Source: a virus | DNA length: 64,000 nucleotides | IMG/VR virus record: IMGVR_UViG_3300025435_001056 | Coordinates: 96,001 to 160,000 of that record | Reading direction: 5' to 3' (one strand) | Shown: piece after piece, positions 5,943-50,883 of the stretch | Position numbering within the stretch: the stretch's first letter is position 1 | How the letters are laid out: every line of letters begins with the position of its first letter | The notes under the pieces: model-generated | Databases searched by the model: none | Seen by the model: the letters and a program-made list of their open reading frames with translations, nothing else | Told to the model about the DNA's origin: nothing | Translations under genes and position numbers: made by a program

Positions 5943-5981
5943 CAAAATTGTTTATTAATCTAAAATAAGTAAGGAGTCAAC

Positions 5982-21837: not shown

Positions 21838-22350
21838 ATGGATCCTAAAGATTATACCACATTTGAAAAAATATTAGACAGTTCGATCGCAACTGATTGT
21901 ATCACTATTCCTAATGGATACGGAGCCGAAACGGTTACAGTAAACAATGCCATTGACACAATCACTTTGTCTGAGTTTGACTTCAATTTACAAAACACCA
22001 TGTCTACTTATAGTAATGTTACTGTCACTAGCCCATACATTGTAAGTGGTGGCACTGGTCTTTATACTACAGGTACAACTGCTTCTCCGTGGGCTACTAC
22101 ACCCAGTTCAAAGATCCAACTGAACGGCGAAGACGCCGATATCGAAGTTAATGGATTAAGTCTAATGGATGCGATACAAAAGATTGAAGAACGCTTAAAC
22201 ATACTACATCCAAATACTGAATTAGAAGCGGAATGGGCAGAACTACGCGAATTGGGCGAGCAATACCGCAAACTTGAGCAACACATCAAGGACAAACAGG
22301 CTACATGGGACCGTTTGAAGGCCATGCCACCACCGGTGACTGATCAATGA
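21838..22350 (+). CDS. Hypothetical protein with C-terminal coiled coil
   Basis: Promoter TTGACA-16-TATAAT at 21804-21831; IEERL.IL.PN..LE.EW.EL motif. Confidence 0.65.
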   Translation: MDPKDYTTFEKILDSSIATDCITIPNGYGAETVTVNNAIDTITLSEFDFNLQNTMSTYSNVTVTSPYIVSGGTGLYTTGTTASPWATTPSSKIQLNGEDADIEVNGLSLMDAIQKIEERLNILHPNTELEAEWAELRELGEQYRKLEQHIKDKQATWDRLKAMPPPVTDQ

Positions 22351-23738
22351 CAACCTGGTCTGATTTTTACGATCAAATTAGAGATTCTTCCTGGCCCGAC
22401 TGCACAACTGAAGATCAGTTTGCCTTGTTGCCTGAACACATACAACAAGAATGCCAAGAAAAATTTGGCTATGTGCCTGGTGCATTTTCCAAGATCTCCA
22501 AATTAAAAAATCAAGTTTTCCCAATAAAAACAGCCACGGCCTGCCAGCTGAAATGGAATTGGAGTACCGTATTTCTTACTACAGAGGAAACCGCCAGTTG
22601 CCATAGGACCAATCATCACAAGTTTGATACCGATCTATTTGATTTTCATAATACTCCATCAAAATTAGATGATCGAAATCGCATGTTGGCTGGCAAATGG
22701 CCTCAGGAAGGATGTACATATTGTCACAACATTGAACAAGCAGGGGGGCAGAGTGATCGTATGACCAACCTGAACTTTTCGGGTATACATGCTCCGCCTG
22801 AATTAGACAATAATCCTCAAGCCATACAAGTTACCCCTAGAATTTTAGAAGTGTATTTTGATAATACCTGTAATTTGAAATGTCTCTACTGTGGTCCACA
22901 TTTTAGCAGCCTATGGGATGCCGAAAATCGACAGTTTGGACAACCGGCCTTTATCAAAAGCAAAAATATAGACAAAAACAAACAACAAATTTTTGCCTGG
23001 TTACGAGTCAACGGACAGTATTTGACCAATTTCAATATACTGGGCGGGGAACCCTTGTACCAGAGCGAATTGGAAGAGTGTTTAGATCTGTTTGAACAGT
23101 ATCCTGCCTCAGAACTCAAGTTGCAAATTTTTACTAATCTTAATACCAAACTTGATCATTTAAAAAAAATAGTTTCCAGAGTCAAACAGTTAGTCAATCA
23201 AAATAGTATTAGAGAATTTGAAGTTACAGCCAGCTTAGACTGCTGGGGTGCGGCACAGGAGTACGTTCGTTATCCTTTGAATTTGGAATCTTGGCAGAAA
23301 AATTTTGAATATCTACTGTCAGAATCCTGGATCAATTTGATTATAGGCAGTACCGTGACACCGTTAACTATAAAAACTCTGCCAGATTTATTGGAAAGGA
23401 TCAATCAATGGAATCAAGTTCGACCAGTTCATCATTATCAAAACAGTGTTAATGGACCCAGTTACATGTTTATTGATATGTTTGGTGATATTTTTCAGTC
23501 AGATTTTGCTTGTGCATTGGAACTCAAACCCGATGCTACCCCAGAACAACAGGCCAGCAAAAATTATCTATTGGGCATTGCCAAGCAATCGGTTGCCGGC
23601 GCTCCAAACTTGCCTGAAATAAAAAAACTGTTTGATTTTTTGAATGAAATAGATCGTCGTCGAAAGACCAGCTGGCCCAAAGTATTTCCTTGGTTAGTTT
23701 TGGAATTTAGCAAACATGGATTTAATATACCTACTTAA
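22347..23738 (+). CDS. Radical SAM protein
   Basis: CNLKCLYC (CxxxCxxC), GGEP, additional Cys (SCH, CTYC). Confidence 0.85.
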   Translation: MTTWSDFYDQIRDSSWPDCTTEDQFALLPEHIQQECQEKFGYVPGAFSKISKLKNQVFPIKTATACQLKWNWSTVFLTTEETASCHRTNHHKFDTDLFDFHNTPSKLDDRNRMLAGKWPQEGCTYCHNIEQAGGQSDRMTNLNFSGIHAPPELDNNPQAIQVTPRILEVYFDNTCNLKCLYCGPHFSSLWDAENRQFGQPAFIKSKNIDKNKQQIFAWLRVNGQYLTNFNILGGEPLYQSELEECLDLFEQYPASELKLQIFTNLNTKLDHLKKIVSRVKQLVNQNSIREFEVTASLDCWGAAQEYVRYPLNLESWQKNFEYLLSESWINLIIGSTVTPLTIKTLPDLLERINQWNQVRPVHHYQNSVNGPSYMFIDMFGDIFQSDFACALELKPDATPEQQASKNYLLGIAKQSVAGAPNLPEIKKLFDFLNEIDRRRKTSWPKVFPWLVLEFSKHGFNIPT

Positions 23739-23802
23739 TGGCAAAAAGTATCAAAAATTGTAGATTTTAAACCAGACAAGTTATATAATACTAAGTATTT
23801 TA

Positions 23803-24094
23803 GAGAGTAGAAAAAACAACCAGGCTAACATTGCGTTTAGCGGAGGATTACAAATCAAGATCTACTCCACAACGGACGGGTCAGTGCCGCAAAGCTGACC
23901 GGTATTAAAGAGGACTTCGGAAATCCTCTTCATTGACAAATGGTATGGGCAAACTGGAAACAAAGGTTTGCTTAGAGAGTATGGCACTGAGGCCCGAGGT
24001 CTTGATCTGTCTAAATATCTACCCACCGCCATTGTCTGTGCGCCCATTCCGGGCATCCGCTGAAACGGTCCAGTTGAACCGAAGGAGGACGACA
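23803..24094 (+). ncRNA. Candidate structured leader RNA (unassigned family)
   Basis: At least 7 complementary stems, including long-range and pseudoknot-like pairs, in a ~350-nt non-coding gap. Confidence 0.55.
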
Positions 24095-24781
24095 ATGAAG
24101 CGTATCTTATTATCGTTATTACTAGTAGTCAGCAGTTTGGCAACAGCAGCAGAAGTACGGCAGGATCAGGTAGTGTTGGCAGACAACACGACTTTCAGCG
24201 GTCAGATGGCGGAGCATGCCGCTAGTTTCGTTCGAAGCACTGCCAATACCTTAACAGCACCATTCTTGTCACAGCAGGATGTTGAGTGCTTGGCCCGTAA
24301 CATATTTTACGAAGCCGGATCGGAACCCTTAGAGGGCAAGGTGGCCGTGGGCATGGTCACAATCAATAGAACCCAGGACGATCGATACCCACAAGATATC
24401 TGCGGAGTAGTAAAACAACGCACAGTGATCACAGTACCACAACAGGTCACTCAAGTCAAGACAGTCAAAGAAGGTTGGCTACTACCACCCCGGCAGGTGG
24501 TGGAAACTCGAACTCAACGGGTAACTCGTGCCATATATCAGTTTAGTTGGGTAGGACAACGCAATCTGCGCATACGCGAAGATGATCCGCGCTGGATCGA
24601 AAGCCGCGCTGTGGCCGAAGAACTGGCCCGCGGCGGCTACGAAACATGGCAAGAAAAGTATAGCGAAGCCATGAATTTCCATGCGGTGTATGTGAATCCG
24701 GGCTGGCGTTTAAAGCGCATTGGCCGGGTAGGAAATCACATATTTTATAAAGGAAACGCACCTGTTCAACAGGGTGGTTGA
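24095..24781 (+). CDS. Cell wall hydrolase (SleB/Hydrolase_2 family)
   Basis: CLARNIFYEA.SE...GK.AV..V..NR, QFSW, FHA.YV.P.W, G.HIFY motifs; signal peptide; SD aaggagg. Confidence 0.9.
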   Translation: MKRILLSLLLVVSSLATAAEVRQDQVVLADNTTFSGQMAEHAASFVRSTANTLTAPFLSQQDVECLARNIFYEAGSEPLEGKVAVGMVTINRTQDDRYPQDICGVVKQRTVITVPQQVTQVKTVKEGWLLPPRQVVETRTQRVTRAIYQFSWVGQRNLRIREDDPRWIESRAVAEELARGGYETWQEKYSEAMNFHAVYVNPGWRLKRIGRVGNHIFYKGNAPVQQGG

Positions 24782-24806
24782 CCAAAAACTCGCAAGGTGT
24801 TATAAT
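24778..24806 (+). promoter_or_regulatory. sigma70-like promoter
   Basis: TTGACC-17-TATAAT. Confidence 0.75.
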
Positions 24807-24838
24807 TGTAGTATGAATAACACTTGCGAGTCGAAATA

Positions 24839-25234
24839 ATGGCATTCCATCTTGAAGGACCGTGGTTAAGCACAACTGGCAAAAAGCGAGGCCCCCGTAA
24901 ATGGGCCAGTTCCGAAGCCAAACAATTAGCTCAAAAACGGCAGGCTGAATGGGATCGTAAACTGATTCAGTTTGAAAAGATGGCGCCTAAATTTAGTACA
25001 GGACCTTATAATGCTCCAAGAAAAACAATACACGACTTTATACCAAAAACTCCACCAGGGCGCGAAACAGTTGCTATCCCTAGTCAGGATACTGGTTGGG
25101 TTGCCTGCGTAAAAGCACAAGATACCGAATATACCGGTACCAAAGTAAAAGGTATTGGCACCATGCACAAATCCAATGCTGTGCCTATTTTCTCCGATGA
25201 CGAAGCAAAAGATATAAGTAAAATGCGTCGCTGA
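24839..25234 (+). CDS. Conserved T4-like phage hypothetical protein
   Basis: YTG..VKGIGTMHKSNAVPIF...A.DIS.MRR C-terminus. Confidence 0.75.
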   Translation: MAFHLEGPWLSTTGKKRGPRKWASSEAKQLAQKRQAEWDRKLIQFEKMAPKFSTGPYNAPRKTIHDFIPKTPPGRETVAIPSQDTGWVACVKAQDTEYTGTKVKGIGTMHKSNAVPIFSDDEAKDISKMRR

Positions 25235-25250
25235 AAAAGGAGATAGTGTC

Positions 25251-25469
25251 ATAGCAAAAGAAGAAGTAATCAAAATGGACGGGTTAATAGCCGAAGTGCT
25301 ACCCAATACCCAGTTCCGTGTGGAAATTGAAGGATTTGAACGAGCTATCTTGGCTACTTTAAGTGGACGCATGCGGCAAAACAATATCAAAGTGCTAGCC
25401 GGTGATACGGTAGAAATGGAATTTAGCCCTTACGACCTAACTCGCGGTCGTATTACCCGACGCCGATAA
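25251..25469 (+). CDS. infA: Translation initiation factor IF-1 (probable ATA start)
   Basis: (M)AKEEVIKMDG...LPN..FRV...SGRMR.N.I.VL.GD.V..E.SPYDL.RGRI; SD AGGAG 8 nt before ATA. Confidence 0.9.
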   Translation: MAKEEVIKMDGLIAEVLPNTQFRVEIEGFERAILATLSGRMRQNNIKVLAGDTVEMEFSPYDLTRGRITRRR

Positions 25470-25477
25470 ATATCTGT

Positions 25478-26020
25478 ATGCGTGAAATAATTGACCTAGT
25501 AGAAGCTTCTACCCGACCAGCCAAGCTGGAAACCACAACCTTGCCCTACACTCACAAGGCCTTGGAACCGGTTATGAGTGCAGATACCATTGAGTATCAT
25601 TACGAACATTTGGCCAAGGGCTATGCAAAGAAATACAATGCAGGCGAAGGCGACCCTGACTTTAATCGTGCTGGAAGTTTCCTGCACAACAAGTTCTTCC
25701 CACAGTTGCGTGAACCTCGCGGTGCCAATAGACCCAAGGGTGCAGTATTGGAACTGATTGAAACCAAGTTCAAAACCTACGAAGACTTTAAAGCAGCAGT
25801 TAAAGAAGTGGCCATGAAGATCCAAGGAAGTGGTTGGATATATCTATCAACCGGTGGCGAAATCAAAACCATTCGCAATCATGCTGTTCGTACCGATATC
25901 TGTGTCTTGATTGACTGGTGGGAGCACTCGTGGAGTTTGGATTATCAATGGGACAAAGAGAAGTATTTGGATAACATCTGGAAGATTATCAACTGGGATG
26001 TTTGCAACGAACGGTTGTAG
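25478..26020 (+). CDS. sod: Fe/Mn superoxide dismutase
   Basis: LPY...ALEP, HY..L...Y, FLH..FF, GSGW and DWWEHS motifs. Confidence 0.9.
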   Translation: MREIIDLVEASTRPAKLETTTLPYTHKALEPVMSADTIEYHYEHLAKGYAKKYNAGEGDPDFNRAGSFLHNKFFPQLREPRGANRPKGAVLELIETKFKTYEDFKAAVKEVAMKIQGSGWIYLSTGGEIKTIRNHAVRTDICVLIDWWEHSWSLDYQWDKEKYLDNIWKIINWDVCNERL

Positions 26021-49418: not shown

Positions 49419-50050
49419 CACAAACAAAAAAACTGTTGATCCTGACCGGTCCACAGGGTGCAGGCAATCACATGTGGTCAAAAATCTTTGCTCTGTATCC
49501 AAGGACCTTTGGCTGGCAGGCTCTGCTGGACAAATACTGGATTGGGCATGATCAAGAACCCTTTGCTGAATACTGGGAAGATCCTGAAAAATTAAAAGAC
49601 TTTGATTGGTCTGGTCACGATTACTTTGTGACCAGTATCAGCGTGCCTTACATGCTGAATGGTGAACGTACCATACCTCGTTTTGGTCCATTCATACAGG
49701 CAGTTCGGGCAGCCGGAGTACAGATCCAATTTGCCATTCTAGGCCGAGATGCCAACATACTTGAAATGCAAGAAACTCGTGTGCGTGGAGAGCCTACCTT
49801 GCATCTAGCTGTTAACGAGCTGGCCAAACTATCTGGGCAGATGCCACAATTTCTCAGTTACGAATTGTTGCATTTATATGGCCGTGACTATCTACAACAA
49901 TTAAATACCATACTCGAGTTTCCTGTGGTTCATACAGATCCCAGGATTAACGAAATCATAAAGGAAGACGCAAATACCAAATATTTTCAACCTGTAGAAC
50001 ATCATTGGGTAGACGATTTGGCCAAACATACTTCAAGGAAATGGCGATGA
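49415..50050 (+). CDS. Hypothetical P-loop/sulfotransferase-like protein
   Basis: LILTGPQGAGNH; SYE motif. Confidence 0.55.
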   Translation: MTQTKKLLILTGPQGAGNHMWSKIFALYPRTFGWQALLDKYWIGHDQEPFAEYWEDPEKLKDFDWSGHDYFVTSISVPYMLNGERTIPRFGPFIQAVRAAGVQIQFAILGRDANILEMQETRVRGEPTLHLAVNELAKLSGQMPQFLSYELLHLYGRDYLQQLNTILEFPVVHTDPRINEIIKEDANTKYFQPVEHHWVDDLAKHTSRKWR

Positions 50051-50883
50051 CACAACGAATTTTAATCATGGGTTTACCAGGATCGGGCAAAACAACTCTA
50101 GCAGGTGTTTTAAAAAAATACTTAGAAGAGCATGGCGATATCAACTATACTCGAGCATTAAACGAATGCATCGGACCCGGAGTCATGGTTAATTGGTTCA
50201 ATGCTGATGATGTCCGTCGCAAGTACAACGACTGGGACTTTAGTCAGGATGGTCGCATTCGTCAGAGCCTGCGCATGTTTCAGTTCAGCATGGAGTCCGG
50301 AGGCGACTATGTGATCTGTGACTTTGTTGCACCCTTAGTAGAACAGCGTAACAACTTTAAGGCTGATTGGACCATCTGGGTAGACACTATCCGTGAAGGA
50401 CGTTATGCTGATACCAATCGAGCCTTTGTGGAACCTGAACAGTACGACTTCCGCATTATCGAGCAGAATGCAGAAAAATGGGCTGAATTTATTGGTGAAC
50501 ACATTGTAGCCAATCGTCGTCGTCCGGTCTTTGATTGGCAGAAGGAAACTGTACAGATGCTGGGCCGTTGGCAACCCTGGCATGACGGACATCGTGCCCT
50601 GTTTGAACGCTTGATTGCTCGCACCGGGCAGGTAGTAATTCAAATTCGTGATTGCCAGGGCTGGCAAGGTTCGAACCCATTTGAAATAAAAAAAGTTAAA
50701 GAATTTATTCGACGCGACCTGGATCCAATCTATCAAGGACAATACGAAATACAAGTAGTTCCTAACATTGTACATATTGGATGGGGCCGTGGAGTTGGTT
50801 ATACGTCGGGCAAAGAAACGTTTGACGAAAGCATTACTGACATAAGTGCTACCAAAATTCGTCGAGAAATGGGCCTTGAGTGA
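50047..50883 (+). CDS. Adenylylsulfate-kinase-like domain fused to HxGH nucleotidyltransferase
   Basis: GLPGSGKTT, NADDVR, DFS..GR.RQ; GRWQPWHDGH...ISATKIR. Confidence 0.8.
   Translation: MTQRILIMGLPGSGKTTLAGVLKKYLEEHGDINYTRALNECIGPGVMVNWFNADDVRRKYNDWDFSQDGRIRQSLRMFQFSMESGGDYVICDFVAPLVEQRNNFKADWTIWVDTIREGRYADTNRAFVEPEQYDFRIIEQNAEKWAEFIGEHIVANRRRPVFDWQKETVQMLGRWQPWHDGHRALFERLIARTGQVVIQIRDCQGWQGSNPFEIKKVKEFIRRDLDPIYQGQYEIQVVPNIVHIGWGRGVGYTSGKETFDESITDISATKIRREMGLE

Follow-up and report, generated by a model that had tools for sequence, protein, structure and literature searches.

Comparative evidence for a conserved, pseudoknotted leader RNA upstream of a SleB-type hydrolase gene in uncultured jumbo phages

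Introduction

Why does a phage genome keep a long non-coding gap directly in front of a gene for a cell-wall hydrolase? We address this question for a 64,000-nucleotide stretch of viral DNA (the window), that is, bases 96001–160000 of the 176.6-kb IMG/VR record IMGVR_UViG_3300025435_001056, which is estimated to represent about half of a jumbo phage. The gap (23739–24094) lies between a radical-SAM-like open reading frame (ORF; 22347–23738) and the ORF for a SleB-type hydrolase (sleB), which starts at ATG 24095 with an N-terminal signal peptide, MKRILLSLLLVVSSLATAAEV. The initial annotation of the window, made from the letters and their ORFs, had claimed a non-coding gap at this place, and the gap is real: the upstream ORF ends at 23738.

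Comparison with its relatives shows that the gap contains a genuine structured RNA, which is encoded on the + strand and under strong selection, and the leader that it specifies is a new family of structured RNA of ~300 nt, of which a core and a 3′ module make up ~190 nt. On balance, we think that the leader probably acts in cis, as a new translational-control element in the 5′ leader of the sleB mRNA, on the synthesis of an exported peptidoglycan hydrolase. Current understanding of when phages lyse their hosts rests mainly on holins and transcriptional programmes; strong purifying selection on a large RNA that is far more conserved than the enzyme would imply a post-transcriptional checkpoint, so far unrecognised, in uncultured jumbo phages of fresh water, a widespread group.

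Results

The leader is conserved in one clade of lake phages

One relative (its SleB protein is 68% identical to that of the window) has the same ~360-nt gap with long identical blocks; in it, the GCCC/GGGC stem of the window is replaced by GCUC/GAGC, a compensatory change. A 30-nt core pattern occurs exactly in 28 IMG/VR contigs, and an 18-nt core pattern matches 30 contigs of IMG/VR as well as 119 or more metagenome contigs, almost all of which come from lakes; approximately 10 of the metagenome matches to the 18-nt pattern are chance matches and were removed. We retained 93 distinct full-length copies and aligned the 84 that have a complete 5′ domain (alignment A2, on which all pairs described below are counted).

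Within the core, 56 of 98 positions are invariant; in the same genomes, the third codon positions of sleB differ by 0.42 per site. The SleB proteins encoded behind a near-identical RNA core are of two types that are only 36–43% identical to each other. The leader stands immediately 5′ of a SleB gene in 30 contigs of IMG/VR and in 100 or more contigs from lake metagenomes. The adjacency and orientation of leader and SleB gene do not change in >100 contigs, although the SleB type differs, and at all 28 loci inspected for this (28/28) a SleB-type ORF with a signal peptide or membrane anchor starts 8–14 nt past the Shine-Dalgarno (SD) sequence that follows the last helix of the leader (S2, vide infra). 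Searching five genomes with a covariance model of the core gave a single copy in every one; two of these genomes are complete, with terminal repeats (337 and 344 kb). The core is present in only 6 of 80 further SleB loci of IMG/VR, so the RNA is confined to one phage clade. Among cultured phages, the best SleB match has <34% identity and none carries the leader; blastn with the gap as query gave no match in GenBank phages. As a separate observation, a search of 185,579 species genomes for the core returned a single match, a 2.4-kb contig (L153, CAITCX010000170.1) that is binned to a Dehalococcoidia metagenome-assembled genome from lake sediment; this contig is probably a mis-binned phage fragment and is no evidence of a host.

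The leader is modular. Five relatives without helices H1–H3 (L009, L020, L070, L083 and L094) retain the CTAAGTATTTT box, the core and the 3′ module; the 5′ domain is absent or different in L009, L020, L002 and L158, and the lineage of the last two has a different 5′ domain. Because the 5′ domain is optional or replaced in relatives, the minimal conserved unit is ~23907–24089.

Covariation supports local helices and two pseudoknots

The whole leader folds no better than shuffled controls (minimum free energy, MFE, −84 kcal/mol for the single sequence; z = −0.79 on the + strand and −1.63 on the − strand), an outcome that the initial annotation had named as telling against its structured RNA; the evidence for structure is therefore comparative, not thermodynamic. 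The conservation and covariation in relatives that the same annotation had proposed as a check are both present in the 84 distinct copies. Since MAFFT plus RNAalifold on whole elements gave an unstable consensus, we used a hand-built structure of 64 pairs in 11 helices. In this structure 94.3% of the cells in the alignment pair, vs 27–43% when the 3′ partners are slid by 1–3 columns, and 32 of the 64 pairs are changed on both sides; the observed covariation score was reached by none of 500 shuffles. Many of the pairs are G.U, which places the RNA on the + strand. Average-product-corrected (APC) mutual information points to the same local helices; among long-range pairs, it finds none that covary. 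The features are collected in Table 1.

In the 5′ domain, H1 is 99.3% paired with three pairs changed on both sides, H2 is 99.2% paired with four, and H3 also has four. These are three stems of the initial annotation (GAGTAGA 23805/TCTACTC 23861, GCTAA 23824/TTAGC 23837 and GGTCAG 23879/CTGACC 23895), each now found to be conserved with compensatory changes, the second with a bulged U. CGG at 23873–75 pairs with the CCG in the loop of H3, so this helix (PK1) and H3 form an H-type pseudoknot; PK1 is 100% paired and has undergone two independent compensatory events (C-G to G-C in L081/L122 and G-C to A-U in L115). RNAalifold proposed instead that CGGA 23873 pairs with UCCG 24056; we dropped this pairing in favour of PK1, which has compensatory changes. 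Two long-range pairings of the initial annotation, 23854/23999 and 23881/23983, had to be rejected because they are either not conserved or uncompensated: the ATCAAGAT/GTCTTGAT pairing is not conserved and, in TCAGTGCC/GGCACTGA, GGCACUG becomes GCCAAAG in many relatives without compensation, the loop CCG pairing with CGG 23873–75 instead. The double occurrence of TTAGAGAGTA that had been pointed out is true, and both copies are conserved in the family.

The core combines one freely covarying stem with segments that are frozen. The covarying stem, H6, extends to 10 bp the pairing GCAAAC 23949/GTTTGC 23966 that had been proposed from the window, with compensatory changes across the relatives. 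H4 (AAGAGGA 23908/TCCTCTT 23924) is present as proposed; it is invariant and thus beyond a covariation test. Its loop sequence UUCGG is complementary to CCGAG 23994–98 in H8, a possible kissing contact, and the CCGAA found in H8 of L062 replaces a U.G pair with the H4 loop by U-A; alternatively, RNAalifold places the whole H4 segment in a 13-bp long-range duplex with 23989–24002. The candidate helix H5 would close the core around H6, the conserved joiner GAGAGUAUGGCACUGAGG, H8 and a variable linker (24003–24031); it is 88.6% paired and has no double changes in A2, with one A-U to G-C change in the divergent L062. Of a 15-nt stem in the initial annotation, GACAA/UUGUC and CA/UG are kept, the rest is not, and the UGGG part belongs to the stem at 23946. 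For CAUUGACAA, the 5′ strand of H5, there are two possible partners, 24032–40 and the GUAUGGCA joiner. Very little variation is seen in the joiners CAUUGACAAAUGGUA and GAGAGUAUGGCA..AGG or in the H8 segment AGGCCCGAGGUCU. Each of the invariant segments has a choice of two complementary partners, as would fit alternative folds; frozen segments next to freely covarying stems would be expected if the former have to satisfy alternative folds or a bound partner.

As an observation beside H5, the context of the TTG start codon of sleB in most relatives, GACAUUGAA, repeats the CAUUGA of the H5 5′ strand (e.g., L004 460–470). By inspection, the H5 3′ strand UCAAUG could alternatively pair with the sleB start codon.

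Beyond H5 comes H7, the GCCC/GGGC hairpin at 24042–54 of the initial annotation, which is conserved with compensatory changes (98.5% paired, three pairs changed on both sides). It is followed by a candidate anti-SD strand that can pair with the GGAG of the SD in 96.3% of cells, every change being C to U with the wobble kept. The two helices S1 and S2 then interleave and so form a second H-type pseudoknot with loops of 2–3 nt. S1 covaries at two positions (C-G in 56 copies and G-C in 27, plus U-A to G-C) and has further pair types in L002, L062 and L091; S2 has all 5 of its 5 pairs changed on both sides, and the ranking by mutual information also supports both helices. This pseudoknot, which ends 1–3 nt before the SD, takes the place of the CCG-ctgaaa-CGG stem that had been drawn here, since the covarying pairs in this segment are 24059–62:24071–74 and 24066–70:24077–81. 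A GTCC/GGAC pairing at the SD turned out to be specific to the window. We also considered a kink-turn that masks the SD, which would call for a bulge of 3 nt, then tandem G.A/A.G pairs, and GA beside the C-stem in both strands: GA stands directly 5′ of GGAG in only 28 of 84 copies (39 have AA and 15 NG). In addition, the base that would be in the middle of the bulge covaries with the loop of S2 (C-G 56/G-C 27), which favors the pseudoknot.

In nested MFE folds of the 3′ module, the SD is paired with upstream bases in 80 of 84 copies, mostly as a helix (P0) around S2. A second candidate partner for the anti-SD strand is an SD-mimic in the 5′ domain, AGCGGAGG (23839–46), which is 92% complementary to it; this helix could be an accessory idea at most.

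Table 1. Features of the sleB leader and its surroundings in the window.
Feature	Position	Strand	Remarks
Weak sigma-70-like promoter, TTGGAA-17-TAATAT	23700..23728	+	In the 3′ end of the upstream ORF; aligned with relatives
Moderately conserved spacer (TTAATGGCAAAAAGTATCAAAAATTG...)	23729..23790	+	Contains an ATG from which half of the relatives have a long frame; 10 codons in the window
Invariant CTAAGTATTTTAG box	23791..23803	+	5′ edge of the structured RNA; T2–T9 invariant in 84 sequences
H1 (23805–11/23861–67) enclosing H2 (23824–29/23835–41) and the conserved GGAGGAUUAC stretch	23805..23867	+	
H-type pseudoknot: PK1 (CGG 23873–75/CCG 23887–89 in the H3 loop) and H3 (23879–84/23895–23900)	23873..23900	+	
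H4, 7-bp stem AAGAGGA/UCCUCUU with loop CUUCGGAAA	23908..23930	+	Invariant in stem and loop (helices 5 and 6 of A2 never vary)
H5, candidate long-range helix, CAUUGACAA 23931–39/UUGUCUGUG 24032–40	23931..24040	+	Closes the core; inferred
H6, 10-bp stem 23946–55/23965–74 with conserved GGAAACAAAG loop	23946..23974	+	9/10 pairs changed on both sides
H8, AGGC-CCGAG-GUCU hairpin or kissing partner of the H4 loop	23990..24002	+	Invariant
H7, hairpin GCCC/GGGC 24042–45/24051–54	24042..24054	+	Conserved pyrimidine loop (AUCCU in most relatives)
Candidate anti-SD	24055..24058	+	(C)UCC in the window, CUCC in most relatives; can pair with GGAG
3′ H-type pseudoknot: S1 (24059–62/24071–74) and S2 (24066–70/24077–81)	24059..24081	+	
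SD (AGGAGGA 24083–89) and ATG start (24095–97) of the hydrolase	24083..24097	+	
SleB-type cell-wall hydrolase, 228 aa	24095..24781	+	Pfam Hydrolase_2 match (5.9e-17); PHROG endolysin

The 3′ module may switch the ribosome-binding site of sleB

The initial annotation had suggested either a controller of the hydrolase or an independent non-coding RNA. What stands of the first suggestion is a large, multi-stem, pseudoknotted RNA tied to the hydrolase gene; most of the long-range and alternative pairings proposed for it are not the conserved ones. Three points lead us to favor a controller over an independent RNA: only 1–3 nt separate the last covarying helix from the SD, there is no intervening terminator, and the element occurs once per genome, in every case ahead of a SleB gene.

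Such cis-acting translational control could work as follows. In the OFF state (P0 + S2), the anti-SD CUCC would pair with the GGAG of the SD to form the P0 helix around hairpin S2, and the ribosome-binding site (RBS) would be masked. In the ON state, S1 would form between the strand adjoining CUCC and the S2 loop; S1 and S2 would then stack as a pseudoknot and the SD would be freed. The 5′ end of S1 and the 3′ end of S2 would lie at opposite ends of a stack of ~9 bp and only 2–3 nt link S2 to the SD, so P0 and S1 should exclude each other. The invariant core (H4, H5, the joiners and H8) would decide between the two states, with a contribution from the SD-mimic where the 5′ domain is present; the trigger could be a small molecule, a protein or the stage of infection.

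Several observations weigh against this mechanism. The mutual exclusion of P0 and S1 is a geometric argument and was not computed, and P0, H4, H5 and the H4–H8 contact rest on invariant bases that are beyond the reach of covariation. The helix between the SD-mimic and the anti-SD has no double changes and is broken in 27 sequences, and the 5′ domain is dispensable, as it is missing from some relatives. The folding energy of the whole leader, as stated above, is no better than that of shuffles. Finally, in most relatives the leader is preceded by a strong promoter of the sigma-70 type; this suggests that transcription is early and abundant, as would befit a trans-acting RNA too.

One form of translational control, which we regard as possible and advance tentatively, is that the leader belongs to an undescribed class of riboswitch or allosteric ribozyme with which jumbo phages sense a small molecule of host or phage and gate the hydrolase. 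The candidate inputs would be a cell-wall precursor or turnover product, a nucleotide second messenger or an ion. The leader has the appearance expected of a riboswitch, that is, a conserved candidate aptamer region with covarying helices and invariant junctions in a 5′ untranslated region (UTR). As a putative expression platform, it offers an SD that the anti-SD can reach in 96% of cells and that is paired in the 80 of 84 folds, together with the covarying S1; the SD side is invariant, so this part is without compensatory proof. If this form is true, phages would use metabolite information to control lysis or wall remodelling, and a ligand-binding leader would represent a new class of riboswitch that has a phage-specific role and reports, as an orphan sensor, on the state of the infected cell; a protein-binding or self-cleaving leader would be a new regulatory RNA fold. 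The boundaries, helices, pseudoknots and >90 natural variants are now defined, so these forms are directly testable.

The invariant core also bears on a different proposal, which we judge unlikely: the leader could be a protein-binding translational operator in which a phage RNA-binding protein, or feedback from the SleB pathway, recognises the invariant blocks (among them H4 and the repeated UAGAGAGUA) and, by repression or activation, sets the timing of sleB translation. Proteins such as gp32, RegA and ribosomal proteins act on pseudoknotted leaders. The invariance of H4 over 7 bp amid freely covarying stems suggests sequence-specific recognition, the repeated UAGAGAGUA motif is conserved, and the limitation of the element to one phage clade (6 of 80 further loci) would fit as well. 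However, alternative pairings explain the invariance equally, no candidate binding protein was identified, and the size of the leader and its two pseudoknots exceed those of known phage operators.

Comparison with known RNA families

The suspicion that the RNA belongs to no known family was borne out by the Rfam check: the 4227 models of Rfam 15 gave no hit in the window at the gathering threshold and, at E ≤ 10, the region gave only a chance hit to a long non-coding RNA inside the coding sequence. Among 18 relatives at E ≤ 10, no element hit is common to two or more lineages except a 22-bit ctRNA fragment in two close copies. ARAGORN found no transfer RNA or transfer-messenger RNA in 22000–26000, and we found no description of the leader RNA in the literature.

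These searches also bear on a self-cleaving or processing ribozyme, or a platform for RNase processing, that would set the 5′ end and stability of the sleB mRNA by a logic like that of glmS; we consider this quite improbable. A run of ~38 invariant nt and an architecture with several pseudoknots are typical of catalytic cores, and the position in the 5′ UTR of a cell-wall gene would be apt. Against it, no ribozyme model of Rfam matches the window or the 18 relatives even at E ≤ 10, and no cleavage site can be inferred. The ydaO/c-di-AMP riboswitch (RF00379) and the glmS ribozyme (RF00234) are, like the leader, pseudoknotted 5′ UTR elements before cell-envelope genes; however, neither matches the window or the 18 relatives at the same threshold, and the conserved blocks are unrelated.

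In organization, the leader resembles the preQ1 and SAM-II/SAM-V translational riboswitches, in which a pseudoknot adjoins or contains the SD: covarying stems surround invariant junctions in a 5′ UTR, and an H-type pseudoknot stands directly 5′ of the SD together with a pyrimidine tract able to mask it. It differs from them in being 3–6 times larger and without an Rfam match, in occurring only in one clade of uncultured jumbo phages, and in preceding a gene for a lysis-type enzyme, not a metabolic one. The leaders of T4 gene 32 and of ribosomal-protein genes (S15, S4) likewise carry a pseudoknot close to the site where translation of a phage or bacterial mRNA begins, and there it serves as a protein-binding operator; the present element is far larger, with two pseudoknots and an invariant core.

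The mRNA of T4 gene e (lysozyme) has a simple inhibitory hairpin that masks the RBS, with a late promoter inside the hairpin. Both are phage mRNAs for a cell-wall hydrolase with an RBS that leader structure can mask, and both may have early and late starts. The difference is that the present RNA is a conserved multi-pseudoknot element of ~300 nt and that its sole conserved promoter-like box is at the 5′ edge. This box (23791–23803) lies 5′ of all helices, no late promoter being found within the RBS-masking structure, and a simple scheme of the gene e type is thus unlikely.

Promoters and the transcript that carries the leader

In most relatives, a perfect TTGACA-17-TATAAT promoter is located ~90 nt upstream of the CTAAGTATT box (alignment of 29 loci); the copy in the window matches at 8 of 12 positions and was not flagged by a promoter scanner. 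No promoter-like site was found within 23804–24094, and the gap contains no terminator-like site between the RNA and the SD. The invariant CTAAGTATTTTAG box may be a phage promoter or the 5′ end of the RNA.

The TAAGTA in this box had been called a late-type motif. It is invariant in the family and is not enriched in the window (22 sites vs 29 expected); neither TAAGTA nor CTAAGTATT behaves as a repeated late promoter, with no enrichment in the window and weak or variable enrichment in three genomes. A late-type TAAGTA promoter is unproven. As a side observation, the TAAGTA sites at 5966, 25215, 36718 and 43214 are 10–60 nt upstream of start codons in A/T-rich context; TAAGTA may be a weak phage promoter motif.

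Two starts could in principle provide the regulation, as in T4 gene e: early transcripts, from read-through or from the upstream promoter (P1), would mask the RBS, and late ones from the CTAAGTATT box would be translated. The sigma-70-type promoter in most relatives is a plausible first start, the box, kept even where the 5′ domain is missing, is a plausible second one, and the SD is paired in the predicted folds. Yet, with the box at the 5′ edge, both forms would hold the whole leader and its SD-masking module (in T4, the late start is within the inhibitory hairpin itself), there is no clear enrichment of TAAGTA or CTAAGTATT, and a simple hairpin would do for such a mechanism; we give this explanation slightly less credence than a ribozyme.

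The same upstream promoter could serve an independent, trans-acting non-coding RNA that merely happens to be encoded upstream of sleB, a proposal to which very high conservation and a modular architecture also lend something. We think it very unlikely: there is no terminator before the SD, the covarying S2 ends within 1–3 nt of it, and the adjacency and orientation to sleB are invariable in the >100 contigs despite the differing SleB type.

The leader does not evolve as a coding sequence

The conserved block could also be protein-coding, either as an ORF of ~105–130 codons from a conserved ATG or as an N-terminal extension of SleB. In 45 of 88 distinct relatives, a frame of at least 100 codons does run across the element from an ATG (in TATTATGG) that is conserved ~85 nt upstream of the structured part (window 23738–23770; e.g., L238 1330–1647); this frame often closes at the sleB start or close to it, with a TGA overlapping the TTG start codon of sleB, and in the window TTG 23933 is in frame with sleB. 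However, the frame has only 10 codons in the window, the ATG is ACG or AAC in 10 relatives, and the invariant core is read in different frames across relatives. The distance from ATG to sleB is uniform modulo 3 (17/16/14). Substitutions in the leader show no excess at third positions (0.18/0.21/0.21 vs 0.14/0.10/0.42 in sleB of the same genomes), and the signal peptide begins at ATG 24095 with a strong SD before it. An extension of the hydrolase, which the initial annotation had raised as a way for its RNA to fail, is therefore not supported by frame, distance or substitution data, and we regard coding as the least credible explanation of all, close to negligible. The persistent open frame might mean that the leader is traversed by ribosomes.

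Hydrolase genes and neighbors

The leader is specific to one of two hydrolase genes. The genome of the window encodes, outside the window, a second Hydrolase_2/SleB paralogue of 179 aa with an N-terminal membrane anchor (G000:C1 ~49794–50333; locus L241 1195–1734); its upstream gap is ~85 nt, with no structured leader and no match to the core covariance model. One complete relative (G004) has the same arrangement of two Hydrolase_2 genes, and in both phages the leader is present only on the signal-peptide type. No Phage_lysozyme or SLT domains were found in the leader-bearing genomes examined.

Several neighboring ORFs were noted in passing. The membrane-anchored paralogue is directly 3′ of a large Q/N/T-rich ORF that looks structural. 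The radical-SAM-like ORF upstream of the leader encodes 463 aa, and its sole relative among GenBank phages is in the Ralstonia jumbo phage RsoM2USA (30% identity). In the single-SleB genomes G001–G003, the leader and sleB are followed by an ORF for 104 aa with three hydrophobic segments, which overlaps the stop codon of sleB (ATGA; L238 2235–2549). Its likeness to holins is one of topology only, it has no match among the PHROG families, and the genome of the window lacks it. In the window, a near-consensus promoter with an extended TG, TTGACC-17-TATAAT (24778–24806), overlaps the sleB stop codon (24779–81) and precedes a 136-aa ORF (24824–25234; phrog_27048, function unassigned) that is conserved after the sleB locus in relatives.

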